Source of the DNA: Paraspadella gotoi
Taxonomy: Eukaryota; Animalia; Chaetognatha
DNA: 64,000 nt
Assembly: GCA_051294375.1 (NCBI GenBank)
Contig: CM119271.1
Coordinates: forward strand, 9,439,308 to 9,503,307
Reading direction: 5' to 3'
In this document: positions 9,366 through 64,000 of the stretch, in pieces
Position numbering within the stretch: position 1 is the first letter of the stretch
How the letters are laid out: each line of letters begins with the position of its first letter
Made by a program: the position numbers and the translations under genes
The notes under the pieces: model-generated
Told to the model about the DNA's origin: nothing
The model's input: the letters and a program-made list of their open reading frames with translations, nothing else
Database searches by the model: none

Positions 9366-9421
9366 ATTGGTAAGACATGTTTCGACTCTTGAGTTTTAGA
9401 GTCTTCATCAGTTATGACAAT
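9366..9421 (-). ncRNA. Minimal type I hammerhead ribozyme in 3' pLTR
   Basis: Minus strand CTGATGA-A-GACTCT..AGAGTC-GAAAC-ATGTC; palindromic helix III ACATGT. Confidence 0.8.
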
Positions 9422-9450
9422 CAATATATTTTACTCTTTAACATTAGTTT

Positions 9451-9488
<38 letters not shown>

Positions 9489-9588
9489 AAAAGAGGGAGT
9501 TTCCAACAAAGAATTGAGCAAAGGACAGTGGTCAGATATGAGGACAGGTGAAGGTAAGATCAGGGGAAGAAGTTGGGTGAAATTTGAA

Positions 9589-9632
<44 letters not shown>

Positions 9633-10157
9633 AGGGTAAGAGAAAATCTTTACATTTTTTGTAAATGTATAACAATGATAGAGAAATAAAATAACAAACT
9701 TAATAGTTAAACTAATAGTAACATTGTAAAATAAATTAATGAGTTAAAGAAGTTGAAATTGAAATAGAAGAATAAGTGATGAGGGATAGGTAAGTAAAGA
9801 GTTAGTGAAAATTAAGTTGAGAGAAAGAGCTCAAAATGAGCTGGCCCCCCCCCCGGGTTGGCAAAGGTGGGACGTTTGCGATAGGCTCGGGTCATTGGCT
9901 TGTCATGGGCTGAGAAGATATGACTGTGGAGTGTGACATTTCGGGACCTGGTAGTGATCCTCCTGGGAAAATGCCTAACGCCACTCGAATATCTCTCTGG
10001 CCTGATAGGCCTGCCGATGGCCCTCCTCTCACCTGACGGTGAGGTGGGCGATTGCCTGTTCTTGCCTGCTTTGGTGCAGGAGATACAGACTCCTCTCCCT
10101 CCTCCTGTAGCCGTCGTTTTGGACGACGCCCAGTGTGAGAAGAGTCATGCCAGGTTG

Positions 10158-12781: not shown

Positions 12782-12920
12782 ATGTTGGAGAGTTTATTAA
12801 TTGACGCTTTTACGGACTGGTTTGTTTGATTGGTAGACATTGTGTATAAACTATCAATTTCGTTGCGTTTTAAGTTTAGGAGAAAAAACAATTTATTTGT
12901 TTTTATCAACGAATTGTATT

Positions 12921-12976
12921 ATTGGTAAGACATGTTTCGACTCTTGAGTTTTAGAGTCTTCATCAGTTATGACAAT
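12921..12976 (-). ncRNA. Minimal type I hammerhead ribozyme in 5' pLTR
   Basis: Same sequence as the 9366-9421 copy. Confidence 0.8.
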
Positions 12977-13133
12977 CAATATTTTTACTCTTTAACATTA
13001 GTTTAGAAGAGAGAGAGAAGAGAGAGAGAGAGAGACAGAAAAGAGGGAGTTCCAACAAAGAATTGAGCAAAGGACAGTGGTCAGATATGAGGACAGGTGA
13101 AGGTAAGATCAGGGAAGAAGTTGGGTGAAATTG

Positions 13134-13165
<32 letters not shown>

Positions 13166-13513
13166 CACAGGGTAAGAGAAAATCTTTACATTTTTTTGTA
13201 ATGTATAACAATGATAGAGAAATAAAATAACAAACTTAATAGTTAAACTAATAGTAACATTGTAAAATAAATTAATGAGTTAAAGAAGGGGGGGGCCAGC
13301 TCATTTTGAGCTCTTTTCTCTCAACTTAATTTTCACTAACTCTTTACTTACCTATCCCTCATCACTTATTCTTCTATTTCAATTTCAACTTCTTTAACTC
13401 ATTAATTTATTTTACAATGTTTATATAGTTTAACTATTAAGTTTGTTATTTTATTTCTCTATCATTGTTATACATTACAAAAAAAAATGTAAAGATTTTC
13501 TCTTACCCTGTGT

Positions 13514-13555
<42 letters not shown>

Positions 13556-13653
13556 CAAATTTCACCCAACTTCTTCCCCTGATCTTACCTTCACCTGTCC
13601 TCATATCTGACCACTGTCCTTTGCTCAATTCTTTGTTGGAAACTCCCTCTTTT

Positions 13654-13691
<38 letters not shown>

Positions 13692-13717
13692 AACTAATGT
13701 TAAAGAGTAAAATATTG

Positions 13718-13773
13718 ATTGTCATAACTGATGAAGACTCTAAAACTCAAGAGTCGAAACATGTCTTACCAAT
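13718..13773 (+). ncRNA. Minimal type I hammerhead ribozyme in inverted pLTR
   Basis: CTGATGA 13728-13734, stem II GACTCT/AGAGTC, GAAAC 13756-13760, predicted cleavage after GTC at 13765. Confidence 0.8.
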
Positions 13774-14615
13774 AATACAATTCGTTGATAAAAACAAATA
13801 AATTGTTTTTTCTCCTAAAAAACATTTGTAGAAAACTAATAGAGTTTTAAAAACAACTTTGTTTTCAAGGATATAAGTTAATTTCAAAATGTCTCTCTAT
13901 TACATTTTTTTAAATCACTAATAAAAAATTCATAAAAAATATCAGACGGATTGGCTTTTTTGTTTGACCTGCAACTCTTCAGATAGGTTTCTTTTATTTT
14001 TATATTATAATTTAAAATTTGATATAAAATGGCATAGAATGCATCAAATGTTTAAAGTGAATAAATTTTTGGAATCGCCAGAAGCTCAGCTTTTTGAATC
14101 TGGACTTCATATTGACTAATTTTAAAGTTGATTTGAATGACCCTTTGTCTTAAGGATATGTAATTAACGAATTTTAAATTTTTTTTTTAAATTTTAACAT
14201 AACAGTATAATAAATTCAATTATTTATGTAATAAAAAATAAAAAATCATATAAAATAAAATAAAAAAAAATTATAAAAACATTAAATTTAAAATATTTTT
14301 TTTTATTTTTAAGAACAGATTCGCTTGAAAAAAACTAAGAAACTTTTATAAGATATGTTAAATCATATTTTAATATTAATACTGCAAAAAATGACTAAAA
14401 CATTTTAACATATATAAGTTTTTATTAAATATTCATAAAATAGAAAAATAGAAAATAGCGAAACAAGTAATTTACAAATTTTTATAGAGTAAAAAATTAT
14501 TAAAAGTTTAAAAAAAATTATTTTTAAAATTTATTATTTTATAAGAATATTATTACAAATATATTTAGAGAAAAACAAAGTTTTATTAGTTTCAACGAAT
14601 TTGTTTTTATTGGAA

Positions 14616-15077: not shown

Positions 15078-18000
15078 TCATCTTCGCTTTTGCCTAATAT
15101 TGAGCAGAATGACGGCCAGCACGTGATAAACGACCATGAGCACCACGAGCATCAAGATGTCGAAACACAAATTTTGTTCGTGATAAGACCACAAGTCCAA
15201 CACTTGGTGATAATTTAAAGTCATATTGTCGTTCACACATCGAGAGGGTATGCGTTGTACCTTGTGGGAACATAGTAGGGGAGAGAATTAGGGGAATGAA
15301 AGAAAATAAATGATAGTGAATATATAAATAGATAAAGAAAGAAAGTAAGTGAGAAATAAAGAAAAAAAGAAAGAAAGAAAGAAAGAGAGAAATAAAAAAA
15401 TATTGTTTCTTTTGTCCAAATGAAACAGTTAAAAAAACAAAATACCGCTTCATTGGTAAGAAAGGTAAGTAAGACTAGTTAGATCAAAATCAGTTCATTT
15501 ATTAACTAAATTAAATTACTATATTGCTAGTACCAATATAAATTAGTACTAAATAAATAAATAATAAAATGAATAATTGATAAATAAATTAATATCAACT
15601 AATTGCTCACCGCTCTCCAGAGCAATATGCTTAACGCTTCAAAGCCGTAATAAAAAAATGAAAACCAACGCATCCACCTAGAAAAGAATTAGATTGTGCA
15701 AAAATAGTCATTTTAAAAAAAAAATAACCAAAGATAAATTAAACTTACTACTTTATTATTATTATAGTCTATTTTTTTAAATACAAAATGTTAGATTTAT
15801 TCAAGTAAATATTAATCTTCAAAACTAGCCTTCTTTAGTATTTTAAATCTTAGAATCGGGAGAGGTATGTCATTGTCGTCTTCAGGAAATAGAGGGAGCA
15901 TCTGTTATCTTTACAACACAAGGATAGAATTCTATAAAATACTATTAAATTCCATGGGAATATTATAACTCAAAATCGTTTCAATCATAGCAATTCGTAC
16001 AAACCTCAACACGAGGGGTATCGAATCTTTGATGATGAAATATCCGGCAAAGAGCATCGGGATCAACATAAAGGGATTCGCTAACGCGATGGCCCATTCC
16101 AAGCTTCCACCGATGCAGCTGAAAGTCGGACAATTTATTTTAAAAAAATGGATTCAAATTTAACAGTTAATATTTACAAAAAAAAAAAAAAGAATAATAA
16201 TAGCGTAGCAAAAATAGAATAGCGCAACATTAATTTCTTTCTAATATAAACCGTAACGATTATAAATTTTAGGCTTTGATTTAGCCAAGTTACCTTATTA
16301 AATATCCATAAGCGATGGTAGTCTGAAAGTTATAGGGAGAGTGTTTTTAGCTCATTTTAATTCTGTAGTATCATTGCAGGAAATGGACCGGTTAAAACTT
16401 TTAAACTTTTTCCATTAAGAAAGATATACAATCGTGATTTCGACATTTCGTAATTCGAACCTGCATGGAAATTTCGTAGACCAAGATGAACCAGCAGAAC
16501 AACTCAAACTGAGATCCTTGATTCGCTTTGAACCCGACCATCCAAAAGGTGACGAAGACTCGAACGGTGACGATAGCGATGCCTATCACAAGCGAAGCCG
16601 TTACCTTAACGATAAATTGGAATTAATTAATTATTTTATTAATTAATTAATTAATTAATTAATTAATTAATTAATAATTAATTAATTAATTGATAGTATC
16701 CATTAATGGATACGTTATGAATTAATTCATAAACCATTTATAAATAAGCAGTCCCCCGTAACTATTTTTTTCGATTTTTTCTTCACATTATTAGTAAATT
16801 ACCGTTCTTCATTACTAATATCTAATTAGAAAACTAGGGCAGAAAGTAACTTTTAACTTTGTTTTGTATAGATGCTCCCTTTATTTCCAGAAGACAACAC
16901 TAACATCCCTCTCCCCATTACATTATAAAAGAATATACTTATATAAAGTATATAATTAAATTTAATATACAGTGAAATTTATAAAATTAATAAAATTTAT
17001 AAAATTAAAATTTTAATATAAAATATAAATTTGTTTTACTGATTTAGACTTTAAAATTTTATATTAAAGTCTAATTCAGTAAAACAAGTAATTTTACAAT
17101 TTTTCATAACTAGAACATAATTCGAATATTAATTATTTAACCTGGGAGAAGTAGTAGATGGTCGGCGAATAGAGTCCAGCCACGTGATCGCGTTGCAGAA
17201 GAGGGAAACTGAGGGGGAACTTCTCGACGACCCCATAGACCGTGTCGAAGAAGATGCTGAGGGCGGGAAGATTTAAACGTAAATTCATTAAGATTTAATG
17301 ATTTATCGTTAAAACAAGTTGGAGCAAACAATGTCGGATCTGCCCACGATTAATTATTTGATTAATTAATACATCTTGCATTTCCATTTAAAATAAAAAG
17401 AAAAAGAAGAATAATCAATTAGTGAAGCAAGTCCTTTGTTTTTCCCATTTAAACTCATTTCCACAATTCCATTGAAACTTGATTTCCAGTTTAATCACGC
17501 ACTTTTCTACCCAAATAGAAAATTTCAAGTCAATCGCCCCATCCACTCATGAGTAATTGGTGTTCAAATGGTGAAATATATTTTTTTGGTTTTTTCCATT
17601 TAAACTCATTTTCACTCTGTCGATTCCATCGAAACTTCATATCCATCTCAATCACACACTTCCCTACCCACACACAAAATTTCATTCCAATCCATCCAAC
17701 CAATCACGAGTAATTGGTGTTTTTTGCTAAGGTGGGACGGAGGGACTGACGGACGAACGGATGGACGGATGGACAGACAAACAGACGGACGGACGGACAT
17801 CGGTTTTTTGCATAATTTATCATAATTCGATGTTCTGACATGATATAAGTGAATGCCCGACAAGGTTGAGGGGGCAGACCGAGGGACCGACAAAGTGAAT
17901 TATAGAGTCGGGATCTGCTGATAAGCAGATCCGACTAAAAATGTTCACGATGGACTTGCAGAGGAAAGCAGGAGACCACAACTTAAAATCATTTTTCCCC

Positions 18001-21000
18001 CCAACTTTTTATGTTATTATCAGTAAGCAGTAAAAAAAAAAACTTTAAAAATTCTGAATTGCTACTTTATCTATGTATTATGAAAACATTTTTCTATATT
18101 GATTCCCAACTTCGATGTTGGTGACAGTAATTAGTAAAAAATTAGAGCTTTAATAATTCTGCATTGCGACTTTATCTATGTATTATGAAAACCTTTTAGT
18201 ATAATAATTCTTATCTTCGATGTTGGTGACAGTAATTAGTAAAAAATTAGAACTTTAAAAATTCTGCATTGCGACTTTATCTATGTATTATGAAAACCTT
18301 TTAGTATAATAATTCTTATCTTCGATGTTGGCGACAGTAATTAGTGACATTTGGTAAAAAAATTGAGCTTTAAAAAAAATTTTAAGAGGAAAGGTCATTC
18401 AGCATAACAATACGTAATCATTGATGTGTTAGAGCTAATATATCGAGAAATACATTATAGTCATCAGTAATCACAAAAAAAGTTTCTTATTTATATGTAA
18501 ACATTCCGTTTTCAATATTTTTTTTAAAATGGGTAAATAACAAATTGTTAAGTTAAATGGGTAAGCACATTTTTTAAAGATTTGTTTTTCAATCTGGTTG
18601 TTAAAAAATTCTAGGTAAGAAGTTAAAACACGGTATGGAATAGTTTAGAAGGGGAGAATTAAGCAATTAATCTCGTTACTCTGTTGGTTTTCCAGTCATG
18701 AACAAAATCTTCAGTTAAATAGATAGTAAAGAAATTCGAGCTACAATGAATCTACACTGAATTTGAAGAGTTGCAGCCTAAACGACTGCAATAATATTGA
18801 ATTAAAAATCTGATTAGCAATCTTAAACATTTGTAAAAATGTAATAGAAAGACATTTTGATAAACGCGTTCCAGTTAGAAAGAATTCAGGGTTAAAGTTA
18901 AAAAACGTTTCATTTTCAAGGATACAAGTTGAAATTTAAAAATGTCTCTCTATTACATTTTTCTAATTCAGTAATAAAAAATTCATAAAAAATATCAGGT
19001 GGATAGGCCTTTTCGTTTGACCTGCAACTCTTCAGATAGGTTCTTTTATTTTATATTATAATTAAAACCGATATAAAATGGGGTAGAATGCATCAAATGC
19101 TTAAAGTGAATACATTTTCGGAATCGCCAGGAGCTCAGCTTTCTGAATTTGCCATTTTAGCCTATTTTAAAGTTGAATTAAATGACCCTTTTCCTTAAAG
19201 ACGCATCGAAAATTTATATCTTAGTATAACAATGACTTGCTAATGACAAAGTCATTTCTTTAATTAAATGTTGATTCTTAGTTGCCATTCCATATTTTCT
19301 ATACAAACATTTTAGTAAATAATATTTCGAGTTACAAGAGGACATTAAGATCTTATTAATCGTTGTGAGTCATTAAAACTAATCCCGACATCTAAAAAAA
19401 CAATATACTTTCTGGCGGTTCGATCATGATCAATTTATTTGAATTGTCAGCGTTTTTTCCTTTTTTTACTCAAACTCTCGATCATTTAAATTATTCGATT
19501 CAAAATACGAAGAACAAAGTTGCTGTTTATTATCAAGAAAAGGTTGTCACGATAAGTTTTCCTAATGATAATTTCTACTGTTCTTTTATTTTGACTCAGG
19601 ATTCAGCTTACGTCAAGTTTAGCGAACTTTAGCTATAATAGTTTTATTAATAGCTATATTACCAAATTACTAATGACCCTCTACTCACTCTGTCAGCAAG
19701 AAGAAGACAACGCCGGAATAATTTTGCTGCAAAAGAAAAAAAAAAAAGAAAACTGAAGAGAGAGTATGTGTTAGTGACAGAACCGTTCAATATAAGCAGT
19801 GCCAGAGCTTCGGATCAGGCGGTAACACCGAGTTACAGGCGGGTTAAGCGCACCGTCCCTCTTAACTGCTAGGCAACCACCGGGCTCGAACCCAGGACCT
19901 TTGGGTCGGGAGGCGAATGACTTGCCTCCGGCATCAATGGCCGCTGATGAACGGTTGGTAGAATTTAGTCTACCATAAAACGATTGATTCGTCACTTTCA
20001 CAAGAGTGTTATTATTATTTATTATGTTATTATTATTATTAAAATATTACCTGCCTTCTCACTATCGTTGAATATTAGCTATTGCATGGTCTTTCCTATC
20101 ATTCTATCTATTCATAAGGCCCTCTCTATCACGCTACCCTCACAGTGATTCTCAGCATCACATCACATCACTAAATCCTTATCAACAAAAGACTCGACCA
20201 TCAATATACTTTTAACCTTGCCCTCAATATCGCTTAATACTTACCAAACGCTGCCCTTCAAACTCTACCCGTCAAACTTACCCCATCAAACTTTCACCAT
20301 CAAACTCCAACCCGCCCCAGAAAACATTCACCACCAAACTTGAACTCCCCCATCAAACTTTACCCATTTAACTCAAACACGGCCCAGCAAACTTTCATCA
20401 TCAAAGCTAAACTTTTCCCCGTCAAACTTTCCCCATCAAACTTTCCCCAGAAAACATTCACCACCAAACTTGAACTCCCCCATCAAACTTTAACCATTTA
20501 ACTCAAACACGCCCCAGCAAACTTTCACCATCAAAGCTAAACTTTTCCCCATCAAACTTTCCCCATCAAACTCTCACCATCACGTTGCTATCGATGATCG
20601 TTTGATAATACAAACAGCCCAGAAAGAGTGCCAGCACCAGCGCCTCCACCAGCTTCAGCAGCAGGAAGAACGGGTCTCGCCCCAGCTTCTTAAAAGTCCG
20701 GTACATCAGCCAGATGTACTGATTGGCCGGGCTCGTTTGGTAAGAGTTCAGGCTGAAGGGGTAGATTCTGTGGAAAAAATGATGGAGGAAACATCAAATG
20801 AGATTTTCGGGGTATTTTACAAACTGTACGGGTCTTATTTCTTTACATATTGATTGTCATCATTGTTTATTTTAATGTTGATTATTGTTGATAGTTGTTG
20901 ATAGTTGTTGATAATCATTAATTAAAAATAATCAAAAACTCTGAGATACAAAGTAAAGTTGCTATAAAAATTTGCATTATAAATGGGATATTTGTTGGAA

Positions 21001-23386
21001 AATGTTTTTGTCATAAAATAATAAAGTAATAAATTTTGAATACATAGATAAGAACTAGGAAGCTGTCAATTATCCAGCAAGTTTGAAAATATATTTAAAG
21101 GTAATTTTCCTTTTTTGTATGGTGGACTAAAATCCACCAACTGTTCATCAGCGGCATTGGTGCCGGAGGCAAGTCATTCGCCTCCAAACCCAAAGGTCCG
21201 GGGTTCTAGCCCGGTGGTCGCCTAGCAGTTAAGAGGGACGGGCGCTTAACCCTCCTGTAACATGGTGTTACAGCCTGATGAGAAGCTCAGGGACTGCTTA
21301 TTTGAACAGTTCTGTCATTAACACATAACAATTATCACTGTCTGTCTCTTCATTGGTGAGCCCGACTTCCAAACACACAGCAACAACAACACTTTCAGGC
21401 GACATGCTCAACCTGGCGATGCACTTTCCGCCAACAACACATCAGGCGACATGCCTCAACTTGGTGACGAACTTTCCACCAACAACAATGGAAGAAACGC
21501 AACAGACTTCTCCCTACGGGAGGGGGGGATACAGTGGACTAAAATCCACCAACCGTTCATCAGCGGCCATTGTGCCGGAAGCAAGTCATTCGCCTCCCAA
21601 CCCAAAGGTCCGGGGTTCTAGCCGGTGTCGCCAGCAGTTAAGAGGGACGGGGCGCTTAACCCGCCTGTAACATGGTGTTACAGCCTGATCCGAAGCTCAG
21701 GACTGCTTATTTGAACAAGTTCTGTCATTTAACACATAACAATTATCACTGTCTCTTCATCTGATTAATTATTACTTGTTCTAACGGAATTAGATTAACC
21801 TCTCAATTCTCGGAAAAGGTTTTCGATTAGCGTCCTTGATGAGCTCTCGGTATTTATTCCCGTAAGTCGACGATTCAAATGAACTCGCAATTATCTGAAT
21901 ACAGGGTTTTGTTAAATAAGCTTGACCAAATAGTTAAACACTGTACCATGTAAAATATCAAAAGATATATTAATAATTATTATCGAAGTAATATGTAGTA
22001 TGAGTTATAAACAAAAATCTATCATGGCTTACCTAAATTTAGGTAAGTTTTCTAAATTCGGCCACAATAACTTACCCTAACCCGCTTCCTTCGGAAATCT
22101 TCCTCTCCGGGCACCACAGCCAAAGTGTGGATTAAATGGTCGGCCAAATTGTAGTTTTTCGGACATGGGAAACCCATCCTAAATTTTGCAAAAAAAAAAA
22201 TGGTTGGTTTGGTGTGACTATCATGATCAGTATATTGATGTTAGTTATTAATAGAGTTTTTAACTTCAACTATGAGTTTACACAACGGTTTTAAACAATT
22301 GTTTTTAGTTTAGCGGTTTTATTAAATAGAAGTAATAACAATTTAACGATGTGAAACACTTTACATACGAAAAAAAAAAAAAAATTAAAAAAGAATCAAA
22401 ACGAAAGGAAATTTGACTCGTGACGATAAAACAAATGACAAAATGAGACCAACTGCCATCTAACGCCGGCCTCATGTCTAACAAAAAAATTTACAAAACG
22501 GAAAAAAAAATAAACAAAAGACAACCCGTCGAAAAACTCTGCGGCGTCGTCCACGCAGCCGCAGAAGCAGAGCCTTCCTTCGCCCAAGAGGTAGAGTCGA
22601 TCGAACATGGCGAAGGTTTCGGACGAAGGCTGATGGATCGTCGACACTATCGTCTTGCCCTCTCGGGCCATCTTCTGGAGAGTGGGGGTTTAAATTTGGA
22701 GGGGGGTGGGTAAGGGGGTTAGGACCGAGTGTCGGCGGACGAAAAGAAAAAGGAAAAAAATGAAGAAAGAAAATAAGGAAAGAAATGAAAGAGGAAGCTT
22801 GGAAAGGAGAAGGATGCAAGGTAGAAAGAAAGAAAGAAAGAAAGAAAAAAAGAAAGAAATAAAAGAACGAAAGATAGAAAGAAAGAAATAAAGAAAAAAG
22901 AAATAAAAGAACGAAAGATAGAAAGAAAGGAAAAGAAAAGAAAAGAGAGAATACCATCACAAGGTAAGCACGCCAAAAAATCAGATATAAGCGAGCAGTC
23001 ATCCAAATATATGTGAGGTTAAATTGAGTTTAGTTAAGTCACCATTGGTAAACTAAACGCCAAAGAAACAAGAACGGTTCATCCAATGTGTTGCACCGCA
23101 GTAACTTGCTTAGCCTATGGATTGGAATATCGTCTTTCATTCCTTATAGTTTTAGGATTTCCTTACGGTGGCGCTAGCAGTCACTTAGATTTGAATTTTT
23201 TTCCTGTCTTAACAAATGAGCATCTAATTATAGGTGAGTTATGAGCATTTTTAACGTAAGTGGGACAGATCGATGGACAGACATACTGACCGACCGACAG
23301 ATCGACCGAAAGGTCACTTATAGAGTTGCTCCACGAGTACTCGCGGCGCAACTAAAAAGGAGATAAATTCTACAATCCCCCTAATT

Positions 23387-23429
<43 letters not shown>

Positions 23430-26400
23430 GAAAAAAAAATAAAATCTTCGACTCCTTAATCCAACCCCCCCTTTACCGCCCCCCCTTCCTCCCGCCACCA
23501 TCTAACTTTCAAAACTCCGACGACGGTTTGCGCCATGAAGGAATCCAAACCGGAAGTGGGTTCGTCGCAAAACAACAACATCGGATCGGTGAGCAACTCG
23601 GCGGCGAACGAGAGACGCTTGGCTTCGCCGCCCGAGATGCCCTTCAACTCGCCGGGGATGCCTGATGAGGTGGGAGAAGGGGAGGCACAGAGGCTCGAAT
23701 TATAAGCACCACCCTGCAAAATTCCATAACTCCTCATTCGCCCTGCCAATCAAGTATATACACAGAGGGTCCAATTATAAGTACCACCCTGCAAAATTCC
23801 CTAAGTCCTCATTCGCCCTGCCAATCAAGTATATACACAGAGGCTCGAATTATAAGCACCACCCTGCAAAGGGGGAGAGAGAGAGGGGGGGAAATGGGGG
23901 ACGATGATTGATTGATTGATCGATCCGACGCGTGGAGCGAACCAGGAGACGGGATTCCGATAATGTCGACATTGTTGAGATATTGCATAATGCATAAGTT
24001 GCGGATGAAAGGTAATTGCAAAATAATAAGTATGTTGTGCCTTGTGGCGGTATATTCACACCGCCTCACGTCCACCATCGTTCAATCAACACCATTGGCT
24101 CACAGGGGTAACGCATCATCCCAGGCGTTGTGTTCCATCCACAGTCCTAACGACTTCCCTCTTCGTTGACCGTCCTGGGGTAACCGCGCCAGTCACTGGA
24201 TGCGTCGCTGAGGATCGGGAGCCCCCAAAGCCAACAGTGAGATCCCCCATCACTATGGGCATGACAGGGAACCCGGCTGTTGCCATTATGTATTATGTTT
24301 TGAAAGTAATTTACTTACATTTTCTTACTTCATAATTTGACAATTTTTTTTAGATCAACTAGATATAAACAAAATATTAAATGCAGGATTCTTAACTGCA
24401 TATTTCTCATTGAGACGTTTTCTTTTACCAGATTCTGCCCGAATCCAATCGTCAGGTTACGACGTAACAGTAAATTTTAGTTTTCTAAATGATTAAGTAT
24501 GCTTTGTACGAAGTAATTGGCAATTACATTTTTTTTAATTAGAAGCATGTTTTTACCGCTCGAAAAAAATATATATATTTTAGAAAGTTTCAAAAATTAG
24601 TTACGTTATTCTTATTAAAATTAGAAGGAGCATCTTCATCTAATAAACATCGAACAAATGACGCGCGTGCGCACTGCTCAATACGCACGCCTCGCACTCC
24701 TTTGCACGCACCGATGATGGAGTGTTCGCACTTCTTGAGACCGACCGACTTCATGACTTCTTCGATTCTCTGTAGCTTTTCTTCTTTGGTGCAGTTTTTC
24801 ATCCGGAGATTCGCGTGAAAGATGAGATGCTCACGGACTCTGGGGTGGATGGAACGAAGAGAGGTGAAGAGAGAGGACACTCTTCTCCGAAAGCTGCCCA
24901 TTTTGAATTAAATTTAAAATTAAGTTTTTTTTTTTTTTTGTTTTTTTTTTAAGGTTTAATAATCACACATTAATCGGGTTAGGGGTTTTGAATAGGGATT
25001 GCGTCATGAATTTAGGTTATGGATTAGGTTAGCCATTAGGGTTGTGGTTAGGGTCAAAGTTTTGGTTTTGGATTGGTGTTGGATGTTGGAAGATATGATT
25101 AGGAAATAGAGTAAGGGATCGGATATTTTGGTTAGGGATTAGGGCAAGGAATCGGGCTAGGATTAGCAATAATTTTAAGGATTAGGAATTTAAATATCTT
25201 GAATACGAGATAAAAAGAGACTGAAAAGTTTTAGAAGTTGTTTAAATTACTAAATGGCTGAAAACTTGTTATAAAGTGAAATTCGGAAAAAAGATACGAG
25301 CAAAGATCTACTAAAATATCAAGATTGCTCGAGAAGATGAGATCGAAGAAGATGATCCAAGTTGAAGTAAACCATAGAAGATGAGAAGAAATGAGATGAA
25401 TTCGGACGATCGAGCGATCTATCTCCCAACGGATCGTCGAAACCTCTGACCTTAACGTTCCCAAAAACAAGTCCTCCTGCTGAACGAAGCCGGAGATTCT
25501 GGACATGACCGTCGGGGAGATGGCTCGTCCGTTGACCAACACGTTGCCCTCGACCTTGTTTTTTTATAATTAATATTATTATTATTATTAATACATAATT
25601 AATTAACTGGAGTATCGAGCCGCCAAAAGTCAACCGGGGAAAAAAATAAATAACTTTTATTTAATATATATAAAAAATTATAACTTTTATTTATATATAT
25701 TTTCTTTAGATTAATATTATTTATATTGTTCATAACGAAATATTAAAATAAATAGCAAAACACTTTTGGGTTTAATTTTAAAACGAAATTAAAACAATCC
25801 TAAAATCGTTATCTATACATTGGTACTAAGCAATTCAAGAAAATTAAAATCGTACTTCCAGTTATTTATTATTAAATTATGTAATATAATCGGTTGTTCA
25901 TAGTTTTCTTTACTGTTTTTTAAGATTCTATATAAAATACGGTTCTCACCCTCAATTGTTTGATTCCAGTTCTATTTAAAATATTTAACAAGGTCGTTTT
26001 TCCGGCGCCACTGGCGCCCATCAACGCCGTCAGAGTTCCGGGCACGGCGACGCCGCTCACGCCGTGTAGAATCACTGCCGGTTTCGAGTGTTACAGTTTC
26101 TTAGGAACTTCTTAAGAATTTCAAGCGTTTGTCTTTTGTTTTTCCCTTTTACCTTTGATACGAGGCGGCGGTGGTTGTCCTTTTTTCGCCCTGCGCTTCG
26201 GCAAAAACGCGGCTGCCTTTTTGACAAAATGACCAAGGTGAGAATCATTACGTATTTAGGAATAGTTTACACATCATTTTTAGTTATGATAGTTATGATA
26301 GTTTCCGATTTGTAAAGAAAAGCTTAAAATATGTAGAGCCATATTATGATTATAGTGACAAAATTTATGAAAATTTTAAGGGTAAATTTTCAACGATTAA

Positions 26401-43123: not shown

Positions 43124-50717
<7,594 letters not shown>

Positions 50718-55583: not shown

Positions 55584-55608
55584 NNNNNNNNNNNNNNNNN
55601 NNNNNNNN
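55584..55608. other. Assembly gap (25 N)
   Basis: N run. Confidence 1.
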
Positions 55609-56009
55609 GAAGAGATGAGAGTTATGAAATGATATTGAACATTATTAGGTAAGTCGATGTGAATGAATGAAGATGATATGAACGTGTATATGTATATTGC
55701 GAGATCGAGTGAGAATGAAGGAGCGAAATAGATATGATATCGAAAAGGATAGTAAAAACTGAGAAAGAATAAATGACCCAATGAAGTCGAGATGAATGAT
55801 GAACTCGTAGAAAGTATTATCAATATTGCAATAAAGATAAATGGTATGATATTGCAGTATAATGCATGATATATGAATGTTTGATACTACTAAAAATAGA
55901 AAGAAAGGAATAGAATGAGTATGAGTGAAATGAAGTAAATGAAATGAAATGAATGGAAGAATGAGAAAGAAGAGAAGTAAACACGGAACCACCGAAGAGA
56001 AATGACAAC

Positions 56010-56125
56010 AGAAAAAGAAATTATTTCATTTCTAAATTTGTGCTCACGATGGAATAAAAAAATTCATGGCGATGTTTCGTGCCTCGACAAAATTCGACGT
56101 TTTTAAGTGTCCTCTCATTTCCTCT

Positions 56126-56157
<32 letters not shown>

Positions 56158-56348
56158 ATCGGGCATTTTATGATCGCGTTGTGAAGGTGGGTTCAGTAAG
56201 GGGGGGGAGAGGGGGGCACTGCAGAGAGAGAGAGAGAGAGGAAATGAGAGGACACTTAAAAACGTCGAATTTTGTCGAGGCACGAAACATCGCCATGAAT
56301 TTTTTTTACCACCTGGAGTCACAAATTTAGAAATGAAATAATTTCTTT

Positions 56349-56350
<2 letters not shown>
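56010..56350. repeat. Long inverted repeat (foldback/MITE-like), ~125-bp arms
   Basis: ATTCATGGCGATGTTTCGTGCCTCGACAAAATTCGACGTTTTTAAGTGTCCTCTCATTTCC matches its reverse complement at ~56239-56300. Confidence 0.9.
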
Positions 56351-56379
<29 letters not shown>

Positions 56380-56629
56380 TCCTCTCTCTCTCTCTGCGCT
56401 TCTGCGAATCGAAAACGACAAATTATGGTTCTTTTTTAAAAGCCTCAAAAAAATATTCAATCAGGTTTCGAATCGAGTTTTGCGATTTTTTTTTTTGGTC
56501 TTCAGTCTTTCATTTCAATTTCTTTCTTTTGTCTCCTCTTTTTCGACGCTGGGAAAGTTTCGAGGGAAGAGTGAGGACTAAGGAGGGTAAGAAAGAATCT
56601 CACAACGGAAGCTGTCGCCTCGTTTTGGG

Positions 56630-56995
56630 TTTAGGGTCTGCAGCGTTTGTGATTGTGATTATATCTGTTTGTGGTTTTGAGTTTTTAAAGCATGATTTAT
56701 CTTGATTGAAAACTGGTAAGTTGGGAATGAAAAAGAATTAAAGTAATTTTAGTCTTTTTCAATTTTTGTCAGTTGAATGTTTGAATTAATGAATGCTTAT
56801 TTAATAGTTAATCCGTCAGAAACGTCTGAAACGGCCTCCAAAATATATCCCGCTTGTTGCTTTGGCTTAATACGACGAGAATAATAAACTCAAGTTGGGA
56901 AAGAAAATAGAACTACAATGAGCTGTTTACTCTATACAGTTACTCTTTATTTATGAATTTCATTTTTTTCTTCGTCTCGACGTAGATGGCCTGCC
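56630..56995 (+). repeat. Left copy of the direct duplication flanking the viral insert (lacks 266 bp present in the right copy)
   Basis: Matches 62241-62333 plus 62593-62874 except for homopolymer lengths. Confidence 0.95.
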
Positions 56996-57108
56996 TGTTT
57001 GTGCCTCTGTAGTTTCGATCACGTTGGCTGACTTTAGTTCTTAAATAACGTTCAGTTTTTGGAACAGGTTGGCGAGTTTATTTATCAACAAACAATTGGC
57101 GACGAGGA
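56996..57108 (+). mobile_element. Short 99-bp LTR-like unit (TGTTTGT...ACAAACA, 56996-57094) followed by PBS TGGCGACGAGGA (57097-57108)
   Basis: TG..CA ends with a 7-bp terminal inverted repeat; PBS complementary to the animal tRNA-Ser(GCU) 3' end (recalled as ..TCCTCGTCG-CCA); starts exactly where the flanking duplicates diverge. Confidence 0.7.
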
Positions 57109-57555
57109 ACGAAGATAAAAATGTTTGTTTCATAAAAACGAGGTGTGAAATTAATTCTTAATTTCGAGATTAAAATATAAAAACGTAAATATAAAATCAA
57201 TTAAAAATAAACCCCAACGGCGAGATGTTAAAAACGTTGAACGTTCTAGAGGCAACGACTTTCTCTCTCTAAAACATTGTTAAAGTTAAAAATAAGACGG
57301 ATACCAATTGTCCCTTTTTTCCCCCTTTCTTCGCGACTGAATCAGTTGTAAAACTTTTCCCTATTATTTGGCCGTCTCGATCGCGATGTCGTCCGCCGGT
57401 GACTCGCGGACGTTGAACTTTTATTCCGCGCGGGAACGCTCGCGTCGGCCGCCACGACCGTCAAAACAGTTTTGGGTGTGCTGTTCATGACGGGTCCCGT
57501 TCCGAGTTCCTCTTCACCTTTTCCCTTCATGTTCCTTTCGTTTTTCCTGTTGTGT

Positions 57556-57876
57556 CTATCCTCTGACTTCAAGGGGACGTTCCCCTTCTATTTCGATGCG
57601 GCGCGTCACCGCTTCCGTTCGGTCGAATAGAAACCGCGCCGGCACCTTCTCAACTCCCTCCAGAGCGTTCAATCTCCATTGGTCTCTTCTTATTCTTGCC
57701 ACATTGTACACCTCTCGCAGCTCCTCCACGCTCTGCAACTTCCTTGCTTCTAACTTCTCACATTCCGCATAATCCCGCCTGCACCGCGTGATTCTCCTCT
57801 CAACTCTCGCGTGGTCCCAGCCTTCCCGTTGGTGCAACCTCGCTCTCCTCACATCTTCACCTGGATCGTAGCTGTA
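57556..57876 (-). pseudogene. Probable frameshifted C-terminal continuation of the RdRp P-loop domain
   Basis: Overlapping frame reads YSYDPGEDVRRARLHQREGW, resembling an NMP-kinase-like lid region. Confidence 0.6.
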
Positions 57877-60800
57877 CAGTGTAGCAAATGCCTGCCTCCG
57901 CGCACGCCTCCTTAACTCGCCATGGTCCTCCCTGCCCGAGCAACACTGGGCCCCACCGCATGGCTCTTGAAACCAGATCCGTTACCGTTTTCCAAATTGC
58001 TCCAAAGCTTGATTTCGGTGCAACTGCACTTTCCCTCTCCCTGATCGTTCCATAGGTATCCATCCACACGGCGTCTAGATCCACCAACCCTCGAATGGTC
58101 CGACACGCGTAAGTCTTTCCAGCTCCGTTACCCATGTATACGTATATCAACTCTCTGGGATAGAAGTCTCTTTTATGTCCGTGATATCCCAGATATGGAA
58201 TAGTGGACCAGGTCTTGGCTGCCCGCAGGTTCATTTGTAGAAGCCATCCATTCCCGCTCAGCGGCAAAAACTGATTACCGAGGTTTTCGAACTTAGCCCA
58301 GGACTCAAGCGGTATCTTCCCAGCCAAGTTCTCAACTCCTCCAAGTTTCCGCGCTAGGAATAGGGGCACGCCCATCTTCCCGCACAGTGACTCCTCTGTC
58401 ATCATCATTTCCTTTTTTGGAAATCCATATCTCACTTCAGCCAGATCAATCTCATCTATCGGGGGATAGCTCCAGTCCCTTTCTCTCTCAAGCAGTGACA
58501 ACCCATCATTTTCTCTTGATGGCCAGTATTGCCAACACCACTGCTTGGCAGTCTTTTGTTGCCACACGCGCAGGCATGCTCCTATTGTCTGGTTTTGTAC
58601 ACTTTCAACAAACTCTGCCTTGATCCTTCCTGGCAAGTATGACAGCAGGCTCTGGTGTCTTTTGACATATGCCTTGCTAGCATGGTTTTCCCACTCCTTT
58701 CCTGGTTTAGCGAGCGCTTCAAACTTTGGCATTCCCAGCACTTCTTCCCCATCATATCTAAAAAGCGGTGGTACCTCAGTGCTGAACCGGAACTTCCACC
58801 ACTCGAGTGGCTTGTCTGGTTTCTTTCCCTCTGGGTCTCGGACGACCATCAGTTTCTCGAGTGTGTGGGCAGCCATTCTTCGCGCATACTGCTTCTGCAA
58901 GCCCCGGCAGTGCAATTCCCAGTAGTTAGAAGCAATGCTGGGCAGAGAGGTCTGTATCCAAGTGCCCAGTTGCGTATACCAGTTCCCCGTCGCCAAGGTC
59001 GCCAGTAGAGAGCACAGAGGTTTTTCCGTGCGTGTTTTCTCTACCGCCGTGAGTTGCAGGAATTCATGGTTAGACCTCCCCGCCATCTGCTTAGTCGGAT
59101 TCAGCTGATGGTTCACCCCGCATAGGATCCCAAAATATACTGCCGCAGCTGCCACGTCCACAAATGCCACGTCCTCATCATCTCCGCAGAGCGCCTCAAA
59201 TCGAGTGTCACCAGGTGAGAGATATGGCTCGCAGTTCCTAATGTTAATGTCCATGTCCACCTTGTGCTTTCCGGTGTTATCCCGTGCGGTCGTTCTCGTT
59301 CCACTGTAGAGTCCTTGCACCATTCTGATGTAATATTTCCCGTCTTCGCCCAACTTCATCCCTGCCACGTCCGCATATTTCTTCTGCGGTCCGAAAATGA
59401 TATATGACTGAGCGTGGCTGATCACAGTCCAACAAAATGCAGCCGCCTTGGTCCGATTTTCCCAGCCAGATCCCTTCTCTAGGTGTAACCGCGCTGTCGC
59501 CATGCTCAAGGCACCCATCTCATAATTCGAGTGCTCTGAGTTATAATCACTATAGTCGGAAGACAACCAATAGGTCCCTTCTGATGCTGGTCCGGCAAGT
59601 CCCCCAGCCGATTCTGCCATCCAGGTTATCACATCCGCCGGGGTTTGTCTCACCATCACTCCCGGAGCCGCTCCCATATACATCTCCACCGCCTGATTTG
59701 AGTATTGTGCAATGAACGATTCCTCATCATAGGTCGCGTACAGTGCTCGCAGCTTGTGACCTGGTTCAGGTTTTACGAAGTAGTATGCTCGGTTAATTGG
59801 TTCCATCATCATCATACGCCGCAACGATTCGTCGTCCAAGTATTCTACTAAAGCTTTCTTGCCTGGCCGATCTGCCTCTGCCAACCTTGGCTCCTCAATC
59901 TTAACGTTCTTGATGCCCTTGCTCGCTCCTGACGCCCCACGCACTGCCCTCTCGCTCCAAAAATCCCGGTCATCCTTCCGGAGTATTTCTGGATTATAAG
60001 CACAGAAAATTTTCCTGAAATTCTCCTCTGCAGATTTTTCAAAGAGCTCTTCATAAACCGTGTATGCACTCTTACCTCCCGCAAACACGTCGTGACCGTA
60101 ATGTTGCTTCCGCATCACCTGGCAAGACCGGACGAACACTTCATATGGTAGATTTGCCTCGCCCTTGCACCGTATTGTGACATTCGTGAGTTTTCGAAGT
60201 TGCAGTAGTGATTCTCCTATCACATCCCCAAAACTTAGCGTGCGTCGAACTTGAGTCAATGGCGTCTTTATTCTGAGATACCATTCCGCCAGTGGCACCT
60301 CGAACCATCCATGACACAAAATTTCCATCCAGATCTGCACGTCCAGACTCACCATCGCTACTACCGTGCCGATGATTTCACTTTCGTCAGACTCCGGACT
60401 CAAGTTGTGCAGATATTCAGCGATTGGTTCAGCACCTGGCATTGCCGCAGTCAATGTGCCAATTGTGAAGGTCACCGGCATCCCTCCAACGGGCTTACGC
60501 CGCGGCATGTCCGACTCCCGCTCGCTCTTCCTTGGATAGAGTTTTTCAAGGCATCTGGCCATGAAACGTTGTTTGGCATCTCCCGAAATGTCCGCTCCTT
60601 CCTTCACCTCCAAAAGCTTCCTCCGTCGAGCCTCGATCATTGCAGTCTCGTCTCCGCTTTGCGACATCCTGCCGCTTCGCGCACCCAGCATTCGGTAGTC
60701 TTCCGGGCTAGTCACCGCGGGATGAACAGTCGCTAGATACGCGGCTCTGTTGCGAGGAGTCAGGGTAGACAGCCAAGCACGCAGTGGGGCCAGTCCGCTG

Positions 60801-61099
60801 TAGTAGTCCGAGCAATCAACGCTCTTGCACTTGGCCTTGTTGATCTCGCCCTTCCGGGAGGCCCACCAGCCACCGAACTGCTCCAACAGGGTGTTTGGGC
60901 ATGCCCCTGCCAGCAAGATGTGGTTTACCTGGACCTGCCGGCAGAGTTTCCTCCCGGGAATTGAGCGCCAACCTCCCCAGTCTCGCACCCCTAGACAACC
61001 GCATCGCGTGATTAGTGGTGGTTCGTCCACATCGATGGGTGCAATTCCGATGCTGCTGTTGAAGATCTTAGCACCCCGCTGACTTAGCAGTGGAGACAT
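57857..61099 (-). CDS. Viral RNA-dependent RNA polymerase (toti-like) with C-terminal P-loop domain, 1080 aa
   Basis: Motif F KPEPGHKLRALY, A SDYSDYNSEHS, B GLYSGTRTTARDNT, C GDD (59177-59185), NPTKQ, E HEFLQ; Walker A GNGAGKT (58112-58132). Confidence 0.93.
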   Translation of the reverse strand: MSPLLSQRGAKIFNSSIGIAPIDVDEPPLITRCGCLGVRDWGGWRSIPGRKLCRQVQVNHILLAGACPNTLLEQFGGWWASRKGEINKAKCKSVDCSDYYSGLAPLRAWLSTLTPRNRAAYLATVHPAVTSPEDYRMLGARSGRMSQSGDETAMIEARRRKLLEVKEGADISGDAKQRFMARCLEKLYPRKSERESDMPRRKPVGGMPVTFTIGTLTAAMPGAEPIAEYLHNLSPESDESEIIGTVVAMVSLDVQIWMEILCHGWFEVPLAEWYLRIKTPLTQVRRTLSFGDVIGESLLQLRKLTNVTIRCKGEANLPYEVFVRSCQVMRKQHYGHDVFAGGKSAYTVYEELFEKSAEENFRKIFCAYNPEILRKDDRDFWSERAVRGASGASKGIKNVKIEEPRLAEADRPGKKALVEYLDDESLRRMMMMEPINRAYYFVKPEPGHKLRALYATYDEESFIAQYSNQAVEMYMGAAPGVMVRQTPADVITWMAESAGGLAGPASEGTYWLSSDYSDYNSEHSNYEMGALSMATARLHLEKGSGWENRTKAAAFCWTVISHAQSYIIFGPQKKYADVAGMKLGEDGKYYIRMVQGLYSGTRTTARDNTGKHKVDMDINIRNCEPYLSPGDTRFEALCGDDEDVAFVDVAAAAVYFGILCGVNHQLNPTKQMAGRSNHEFLQLTAVEKTRTEKPLCSLLATLATGNWYTQLGTWIQTSLPSIASNYWELHCRGLQKQYARRMAAHTLEKLMVVRDPEGKKPDKPLEWWKFRFSTEVPPLFRYDGEEVLGMPKFEALAKPGKEWENHASKAYVKRHQSLLSYLPGRIKAEFVESVQNQTIGACLRVWQQKTAKQWCWQYWPSRENDGLSLLERERDWSYPPIDEIDLAEVRYGFPKKEMMMTEESLCGKMGVPLFLARKLGGVENLAGKIPLESWAKFENLGNQFLPLSGNGWLLQMNLRAAKTWSTIPYLGYHGHKRDFYPRELIYVYMGNGAGKTYACRTIRGLVDLDAVWMDTYGTIRERESAVAPKSSFGAIWKTVTDLVSRAMRWGPVLLGQGGPWRVKEACAEAGICYTVQLRSR

Positions 61100-61111
61100 G
61101 TACTCACTCTT

Positions 61112-62140
61112 TTAGGTACATAGTTCCAAACCCATCTGCATTCCTGCCACTCCCCGGGCCCAGCCGCCACCACGTTCTTCAATTTGAGGCATGATGGGCT
61201 CTCCAAAATCATTTTTCTGGCGTTCCCACACATCTCGCATGATGACCAACTGCCTTTCGTTGTACCTGGGTCGCTGCCACCGGTACACGTCCAATGCCGA
61301 CTCAGCTTCAGCAATCAACCGTTCGCAGCCAGCTGCAAAAGCTTCCTCAGAAACCGACCTGCCGTTTTCCTGCATCTCTGTCCCGATCAGAGACTTTCTA
61401 TCAGGTGCCAGGGGAAGAATCGCTGCATCAAGCACCCGCATTAGCTGCTGTTCCTGGGGCCAAGACATCTCCCCTGCCCGAAGCAGCATCTTAACGTAAG
61501 CTATCACGCCCGTGTCGCAATCAACCTCCGTCCACAATCTCTTTTGGTTCCCAACACAGGCACAAATGGCTTTCTTGACCAATTCCCATTCTTCCGCGCC
61601 GATCTCCAGAGGACGTGTCCGCCGTGGCCGGAGATCATCCGCTAGTGCCAACCTCTCCGGAGCAAAACTGATTATCTCCATCCCATCCCGCACATCAACA
61701 ACTTCAGCATAACCCGGCGGACACCAGAACTCTTCTTCTTCAGCAGTGTCACTCAACACCAAAGAACCTGCTCCCTGCATTGTTGCATGAGGTTCCAAAG
61801 GTGCTATCCTATCCCGCACGGTAAACAGAGTTTGTGTGGTCGCCATGGCATTCCATCGTGAGATGAACGTCTGTCCACGACGAGTAGCCCTCTCAAGCTC
61901 CTCAAGCAGAAAATCTTCTTGCGCCTCATGCAACTCCCGCAGTTTCTGGAGTTGCCTGAGGCGGTGCACATCGTCCTCTCCCGGCGCGTCCCGAGCCAAT
62001 TCGTTGGCAATGGCCGCGTGCAATTCCCCCAGTTGGCGAGAGCAGGTATCTAACGCCTCCTCATAGGCGACTCGACTCCGCTCCGCACTTGCCGCAATCG
62101 ATTGAAAAGCTGCCACAATATCACGTGACGCAGCTCCCAT
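61112..62140 (-). CDS. Viral ORF1, 342 aa, unknown function, coiled-coil-like N-terminus
   Basis: Uninterrupted ORF with the same composition as the RdRp ORF, in the same frame, 12 nt before the RdRp ATG. Confidence 0.75.
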   Translation of the reverse strand: MGAASRDIVAAFQSIAASAERSRVAYEEALDTCSRQLGELHAAIANELARDAPGEDDVHRLRQLQKLRELHEAQEDFLLEELERATRRGQTFISRWNAMATTQTLFTVRDRIAPLEPHATMQGAGSLVLSDTAEEEEFWCPPGYAEVVDVRDGMEIISFAPERLALADDLRPRRTRPLEIGAEEWELVKKAICACVGNQKRLWTEVDCDTGVIAYVKMLLRAGEMSWPQEQQLMRVLDAAILPLAPDRKSLIGTEMQENGRSVSEEAFAAGCERLIAEAESALDVYRWQRPRYNERQLVIMRDVWERQKNDFGEPIMPQIEERGGGWARGVAGMQMGLELCT

Positions 62141-62240
62141 GACACTCTCTCAATTGCAACCTCGCTCAATAGACTTCCAATATGGAATAGACGCCTTCAC
62201 ATGGTTTTCACTGAAAAACACTTTCGTGCAAAAGCGTCTA

Positions 62241-62874
62241 TTTAGGGTCTGCAGCGTTTGTGATTGTGATTATATCTGTTTGTGGTTTTGAGTTTTTAAA
62301 GCATGATTTATCTTGATTGAAAACTGGTAAGTTTTTTTTTGTTTTTTTTTTTTTTTTCTGAAAAGAAAACAGAGCAAACAAATAATTGCGGGAATGGTTG
62401 CAAAAATATCTTATGTCAACAATAAACGAGAACAAATAAGGGGAAGATAAAAATGAAAAAGAAGAAGAGATCGGGAGACAAAGTCAAGCAACTCCGTCCA
62501 CATGAGACGGCAACTCAATCACGGGACTTCGGGAAGCGAGCAGGTCCCCGTTCTCGCGCTGAAGGCAGACAGAAAGTCTCTCAAAAAAGTGAGTAAGTTG
62601 GGAATGAAAAAGAAATTAAAGTAATTTTAGTCTTTTTCAATTTTTGTCAGTTGAATGTTTGAATTAATGAATGCTTATTTAATAGTTAATCCGTCAGAAA
62701 CGTCTGAAACGGCCTCCAAAATATATCCCGCTTGTTGCTTTGGCTTAATACGACGAGAATAATAAACTCAAGTTGGGAAAGAAAATAGAACTACAATGAG
62801 CTGTTTACTCTATACAGTTACTCTTTATTTATGAATTTCATTTTTTTTCTTCGTCTCGACGTAGATGGCCTGCC
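62241..62874 (+). repeat. Right copy of the flanking duplication (634 bp)
   Basis: Matches 56630-56995 with an extra 266-bp segment between two GTAAGTT motifs. Confidence 0.95.
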
Positions 62875-64000
62875 ATTACATTCAGATAAACGTTAACAGC
62901 CAGAATTAACCCAAAACCGCAAACGAGTGTCGCCCGAATTCGCCTCCTCCCTTTCGAAAATTAAATAATCATGATCGTCACAAATTTGAATTTCCTCGCA
63001 AAAACTTTAAATATTTCTCAGAACGACGACGACGACGACGACGAACCTAAAATTACCCAGAAACGGAGAAATCAAAAAGGCAAAAAAGAAAGAAAGATTT
63101 TCATGAAAGAATTCGCGATTGACTTGAGATCGACACCCACAGAAATAAAATTGGAAACCACTTTTCTTATGCATGCGTCAAGACGAAAGAAACTTCAGCT
63201 TTCTTTTTTTTTTATTTTCTTTTTTTTTTTAAGCCGGTGACATTTTGGGTTTTGTGTCTCGGGATTTTTCTGAAAAGAGAATCGGTAGTTGTCTTGAATC
63301 TTCGGAAACAACCTCAGGTTGTTTGAAATGTTGGACATATATTGTTGTATATATTTTAGGATGTTCGGTACAAGCCAGTGCAACGACTGATTTTTTGAAA
63401 GCTAAACGCGACGCGACATCCCAGAGTTTCATAAGAAACGACAGAATTTAAATTAATAAATCAAGAGATCAACTTCAAGTAGTATTAAACTTTCTTTTTC
63501 AACCACAGGTACATCATTAACGGATCCAAAGTTAAAATTCTGTCGAAATTTATCTCATTCTTCTTCTATGTACTGCTTTGAAATTCCAAAATTGCCTAAA
63601 TATGTCGTAAGACATAAATGGTTTTTTAGGCATACTTCTCACTTTGATCATACAAACACCTTGACCCCAAATTAAATTGGCCGCCATTCAATTTCTTAAC
63701 ACCGACGCAGCCAACTTTTTTTTATTAAAAAAAAAATTAAATCTGTTAATTGAAATCGTGAATTTTATTCTCTCACTCGCCCCAGTTCGTGAAATATTTC
63801 TGCTGTGAATGTTTCTCAACCAGGATTTCTCCTTTTTTTTTATTTCACGAAAACCCCAAACGAAAAACTTTCACTAAAACCGTTTCGTGACGAATGAGAA
63901 AGAATCTAGTGATACATAATTAAAGAGCATATCCGTTAACGTCAGCCATTTTTTTTTCGCCGACATTTGAGATTTACGAATTGATTTAAAACATCACGCA

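Follow-up and report, generated by a model that had tools for sequence, protein, structure and literature searches.

A chromosomal DNA copy of a toti-like virus polymerase RNA, probably a young endogenous viral element, in the chaetognath Paraspadella gotoi

The 64,000-nt stretch of the Paraspadella gotoi genome analyzed here (GenBank assembly GCA_051294375.1, contig CM119271.1, positions 9,439,308 to 9,503,307; herein referred to as the window) carries on its minus strand, at ~57350–62240, a block of sequence from a toti-like double-stranded RNA (dsRNA) virus. The block spans 4,891 nt (its left end is uncertain by ~100 nt) and has a GC content of 44–63% per 100 nt (46% in the last bin, part of which is leader) versus 21–45% in most 1-kb windows of host DNA, in agreement with an initial annotation that had described a GC-richer block of ~4.9 kb. 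Its longest open reading frame (ORF), of 1080 aa, matches the Pfam RdRP_4 family of RNA-dependent RNA polymerases (RdRps) at E = 7.5e-13 (48.7 bits, against a cut-off of 22), and the polymerase motifs that the same annotation had read in toti-like form are indeed present and common to nine relatives. An AlphaFold model built from a 60-sequence alignment (pLDDT 87.5) adopts an RdRp fold, for which the top matches in a viral fold library are toti-like RdRps (TM-score up to 0.91) and the top matches in the PDB are viral RdRps; a PDB search by single sequence returned chance matches only. The block thus combines an RdRP_4-type polymerase with the conserved palm motifs of toti-like dsRNA viruses (Ghabrivirales type) and is real viral polymerase sequence.

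The initial annotation had described the 1080-aa ORF together with a 342-aa ORF upstream of it. The 342-aa ORF is present as described, beginning at ATG 62140, and is not a separate gene: the two ORFs share one frame and are separated by a single TAA, which is crossed by single tblastn alignments in six of the seven closest full-length relatives. Residues 209–302 of the shorter ORF match a profile of the relatives' pre-RdRp region (HMM E = 7e-15), although its first 205 residues have no convincing match to the relatives' profile and the ORF as a query found nothing at near or longer lengths, nor in viral contigs (a single-sequence model of it was poor, with a pLDDT of 42, and was not used). 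At the other end, the relatives do not stop where the 1080-aa ORF stops; all 11 full-length relatives tested continue in frame -2 from ~57880 to ~57570 at 37–50% identity (tblastn). Because the relatives' alignments cross the TAA and continue past the frameshift in the other frame, the 342-aa ORF, the 1080-aa ORF and a tail of ~100 aa constitute one gene of ~1,528 codons, broken by one stop and one frameshift, in place of the intact two-ORF layout first proposed. A capsid identity for the upstream ORF is rejected, since this ORF belongs to the RdRp gene, and so is a viral read-through stop at the TAA, since the relatives have no stop there.

The frameshift falls in a C-terminal domain whose profile (60 sequences) matches guanylate kinases (best E = 9.2e-6). 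The polymerases of the clade (57556–58140, minus strand, in the element; P0001–P0022 among the relatives) end in this P-loop domain, which resembles guanylate and adenylate kinases. Literature searches aimed at a C-terminal P-loop domain in this clade found no description of one; the ICTV profile of chrysoviruses notes a P-loop NTPase at the N terminus of their RdRPs (PMC7414429).

Feature coordinates in and around the viral block (positions in the window; strand given for viral features)
Feature	Position	Strand	Remarks
Left copy of the 366-bp duplicated flank (parts A and B)	56630..56995		No substitutions relative to right copy
Host-like AT-rich spacer (~355 bp) between left flank copy and virus	56996..57349		Scored as host by Markov model; unrepeated in the window
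Likely viral 3' UTR	57350..57555	minus	Junction within 57300–57450; no poly(A)
C-terminal ~100 codons of the viral gene, other frame	57556..57879	minus	tblastn frame -2
1080-aa open frame	57857..61099	minus	ATG 61099; contains entire RdRp core
Frameshift site (~57880)	57870..57890	minus	Outside any homopolymer run; cuts C-terminal P-loop domain
Walker-A-like motif of C-terminal NMP-kinase-like domain	58112..58138	minus	Profile match; common to clade
RdRp motifs F, A, B, C (GDD), E	59054..59776	minus	Intact; common to nine close relatives
In-frame TAA	61112..61114	minus	Relatives have one ORF across the site
342-aa N-terminal part of RdRp gene	61115..62140	minus	ATG 62140; aa 209–302 match relatives, aa 1–205 unmatched
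100-nt leader, likely natural 5' UTR	62141..62240	minus	Hairpin 62240–62190 starts at junction
Right copy of flank part A, adjoining viral 5' end	62241..62333		93/93 identical
266 bp exclusive to right flank copy, T-rich at start	62327..62592		Bounded by 7-nt direct repeat
Right copy of flank part B	62593..62874		Sequence comparison with left copy

To place the source virus, we consider its relatives. An HMMER search returned 238 matches at E <= 0.001, and among the best 150 of these no protein exceeds 53% identity (1.84 billion representatives searched). DNA identity to the fetched contigs is just ~66–73% in the longer matches (120–350 nt), so the source virus is not among them, and metagenome scans found no relative. 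These searches support the suggestion of the initial annotation that the source virus is undescribed. In a FastTree phylogeny of 25 sequences (15 of 39 candidate rows were left out, 14 as distant or partial and P0011 as a near-duplicate), the element falls inside an unclassified clade with CsTLV2 and Hubei toti-like virus 5 (clade support 1.0). Within it, the element is sister (0.887) to P0014, a Logan protein and its closest relative (a single ORF of 2,195 aa on a 6,682-nt contig), and then groups with CsTLV2 and IMG/VR contigs (0.985), apart from the bipartite ditoliviruses. Forced grouping with the ditoliviruses BlaDTV1 and EnaTV2 was rejected by an approximately unbiased (AU) test (p = 0.0002, 5,000 replicates; a rough value from a fast constrained search, for which 11 further rows were dropped; branch supports quoted are those of FastTree).

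The closest named RdRp is that of CsTLV2 (53% identity over the core, 44% over 1,237 aa), a virus with a comparably long RdRp ORF (1,547 aa) and the same C-terminal motif; however, CsTLV2 is an exogenous, monopartite virus of 7,421 nt with two ORFs (PMC8973213), namely an upstream capsid ORF and an RdRp ORF linked by a predicted -1 frameshift, whereas the element lacks the capsid part and has its own leader. Other named matches are ditoliviruses of Bremia, Erysiphe and Plasmopara samples, and Hubei toti-like virus 5, Sanya totivirus 7, Fushun totivirus 4 and Beihai razor shell virus 4. The latter four belong to the same RdRp clade (36–45% identity) and are collinear with the element over their C-terminal ~1,050–1,300 aa, but are monopartite viruses of 7.5–9.5 kb that encode one polyprotein of 2,461–3,034 aa. 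The hosts of the clade are unsettled: its members were recovered from samples of crab, nematode, mollusc, and mildew or oomycete (PMC8973213; PMC10868552), with a spirurid nematode sample given for Hubei toti-like virus 5 in a preprint (bioRxiv 10.64898/2025.12.02.691819), and insect labels derive from virus names only.

Both ends of the viral block meet host-type DNA in the assembly. The assembly is free of N from 55609 to 64000 and both junctions join host-type sequence, so that the viral sequence is, in the assembly, contiguous with host DNA as expected of an endogenous viral element (EVE). The block is flanked by a duplication of host sequence, the two copies of which differ over 366 bp by no substitutions and by two 1-nt homopolymer length differences; no third copy was found within the window. 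The 266 bp found in the right copy alone may be a retroposed insert in that copy or reflect a microhomology deletion in the left one. Capture within a long terminal repeat (LTR) element is rejected because the repeats are without TG...CA ends, a primer-binding site or retroelement coding sequence, and a retroposed insert of the LINE type is rejected for want of a 3' poly(A) and a short target-site duplication.

At the viral 5' end, the insert begins at a hairpin (62240–62190, including G-U pairs; z = -4.75, none of 200 shuffles as strong, rank 2 of 196 windows), followed by an ATG that lies 100 nt from the junction in strong context (purine at -3, G at +4). This leader holds stops in all three frames, with only one in the gene's frame, just before the ATG (TGA 62152–62150), and its first-position GC in that frame is 0.34 compared with 0.55–0.65 in the coding pieces (p = 0.009). 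Since the insert begins at a hairpin and a noncoding-like leader, a natural RNA 5' end is suggested, and on balance we lean toward the leader being a natural 5' UTR and the copy having reached the 5' end of a genome segment or subgenomic RNA. The opposite, viral 3' boundary is diffuse (57300–57450). The strongest hairpin of the element lies elsewhere, inside the 5' coding region (61965–61911, minus strand; z = -6.6, rank 1 of 196), and may represent a viral cis signal.

The window yielded no capsid-side homology; tblastn searches with the N-terminal parts of P0014–P0021 gave low-complexity matches only. The element therefore lacks the monopartite totivirus layout, in which a capsid gene lies upstream on the same RNA, and would be a near-complete genome only if the virus were segmented. 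Indeed, the initial annotation had spoken of most of a genome or segment: the former does not hold in the monopartite sense, the element being 52–66% of the length of the genomes of CsTLV2, Hubei toti-like virus 5, Sanya totivirus 7 and Fushun totivirus 4, and the latter fits, the element being 97–103% of the length of two ditolivirus RNA1 segments. According to their description (PMC10868552), these viruses have two segments, of which RNA1 measures about 5 kb, and they likely arose through a genome split. Their RNA1 (4.76–5.04 kb, with one RdRp ORF of 1,547–1,640 aa) has the size and layout of the element (4,891 nt, ~1,528 codons); however, they derive from oomycete and mildew samples, share 42–46% identity with the element and are not monophyletic with it, and no RNA2 was seen in the window.

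The insertion is likely young on the evidence of decay in ORF and flanks, as the initial annotation proposed. The ORF deviates at 13 of 228 columns otherwise invariant in nine relatives (5.7%; the nine exogenous relatives themselves range from 0.9% to 6.9%), the single stop in 4,560 coding nt corresponds to ~0.5% neutral change (95% range 0.01–2.9%), and the flank copies are <0.8% apart. If the two breaks were errors of sequencing or of reverse transcription, the insertion would be younger still.

We consider it probable that the block is DNA copied, over 4.9 kb, from the polymerase RNA of an undescribed toti-like virus, with one stop and one frameshift and without a capsid gene, and that it is a young EVE for which a retroelement of the host supplied the reverse transcriptase in trans and which entered the chromosome as a break was being repaired. 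dsRNA viruses have no DNA stage, and viral sequence in a DNA assembly hence requires reverse transcription. We hypothesize that a host reverse transcriptase copied the viral RNA, probably to its end, that the resulting DNA was joined into a break in the chromosome, that a template switch during joining recopied the neighbouring host DNA and produced the flank duplication, and that the stop and frameshift date from insertion or later. Lacking a capsid gene and broken twice, the element would be unable to replicate or make particles; any present role is predicted to be as RNA, likely as a source of antisense or PIWI-interacting RNA (piRNA). More tentatively, and with somewhat greater doubt than confidence, the element may be an entire RNA1 with its termini, from a bipartite animal dsRNA virus whose genome split independently of the ditoliviruses, and may have entered the germ line only very recently by end-to-end copying, along with a templated host DNA duplication.

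Several observations weigh against these readings and lend themselves to other explanations. The junctions show no poly(A), short target-site duplication or retroelement sequence that would point to a particular reverse transcriptase, and sequencing error might account for both breaks. In the RdRp frame the leader stays open over 29 codons (chance 0.13), so it might instead be coding, with a third break. The nearest relatives, CsTLV2 and P0014, are monopartite, the tree groups the element with monopartite viruses rather than with ditoliviruses, and an alternative frame runs open through the first 14 codons from the junction. These last three points would suit a real EVE that covers only the 3' portion (half to two-thirds) of a monopartite genome, reverse transcription having stopped near the boundary of capsid and polymerase, with the leader as the end of the capsid gene or an intergenic region. 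We regard this as rather unlikely, if the most serious alternative: a stop at random would seldom fall so close to an ORF start (within 100 nt) and directly beyond a complete hairpin, the start codon has the favourable context described above, no canonical slippery heptamer is seen by eye, and the leader TGA blocks a frameshift of the CsTLV2 type.

A 25-N gap (55584–55608) and a perfect fold-back (56010–56352) lie within 2 kb of the insert, the flank copies are identical save for homopolymer length differences of a kind that can mark assembly error, and the clade includes viruses of oomycete samples (PMC10868552); viral cDNA or the EVE of a co-sequenced symbiont might accordingly have been misassembled into the scaffold, or an apparent flank duplication might result from the merging of two haplotypes. 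Such a chimera is improbable given that both junctions are N-free and join host-type DNA, that the 266 bp exclusive to the right flank copy do not suit a plain assembler repeat, and that RNA viruses leave no copy in a DNA library and the two breaks would not be expected together in a live virus. Least probable of all, and to us barely credible, is a co-opted polymerase gene that the host keeps open and expresses. Such a gene would account for 3.2 kb of open frame with all catalytic motifs, and co-option of a toti-like EVE is published for planthoppers (PMC10636211); however, decay is low in general, including in the non-genic flanks, so that youth accounts for the open frame, and the ATG of the ORF differs from the relatives' start and its C-terminal domain is cut.

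The surrounding scaffold supports the animal genome setting given in the initial annotation. On the minus strand lie spliced-looking exons of an ABCG/white-like transporter (15900–25600; Pfam ABC_tran, ABC2_membrane) and, ~7 kb from the insert, of a BTB-BACK-Kelch gene (45100–50050; Pfam), which we take to be an animal-type gene set. A broken retroelement (9900–12800, minus strand) is bounded by ~500-bp direct and inverted terminal repeats (9273–9852 and 12829–13819) that are 95–97% alike; we label it, presumably, Penelope-like from its GIY-YIG and reverse transcriptase motifs (Pfam gave no match), and this young family is a candidate source of the reverse transcriptase. The fold-back, 400 bp away from the 25-N gap, consists of two inverted repeats, one perfect (84 nt) and one nearly so (33 nt), and may be a miniature inverted-repeat transposable element (MITE), a template switch or an assembly artefact. 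An Rfam scan of 54–64 kb yielded 21 matches, all below the gathering score and all on a CT fold-back, with no ribozyme. Host DNA has a CpG observed/expected ratio of 1.2–1.4 and AG-dominated microsatellites, suggesting little CpG methylation.

The class of element is well known and long toti-like EVEs have been published before. Those of planthoppers range from 446 to 10,814 nt, some spanning capsid and RdRp, with frameshifts usual and some old or co-opted (PMC10636211); totivirus EVEs of the isopod Armadillidium are among pieces of 42–588 aa, without target-site duplications (PMC4231630); and yeasts hold complete endogenous Totivirus genomes (PMC2805616). All share with the present element toti-like dsRNA virus DNA in a eukaryote chromosome, commonly with frameshifted ORFs, and those of Armadillidium and yeasts also flanks without a retrotransposition signature. 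They stem, however, from other virus lineages, whereas the present element shows hardly any decay, apparently retains the end of an RNA and lies beside a long duplication of its flank. Literature searches turned up no EVE of the CsTLV2 / Hubei toti-like virus 5 clade in the titles and passages covered, although EVE tables in supplements or subscription papers could hold one; what may be new is a genome that split independently in a lineage associated with animals.

A chromosomal copy ties one lineage of a clade with unsettled hosts to the animal's own cells. Given how little the insert has decayed, its probable RNA terminus and the length of the flank duplication, the locus is well suited to studying how the RNA of a dsRNA virus becomes DNA, since an allele without the insert probably survives. 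If the segment reading is true, the element would be fossil evidence that the clade infects animal germ cells and would mark a second origin of bi-segmentation, segmentation having arisen at least twice in the clade.

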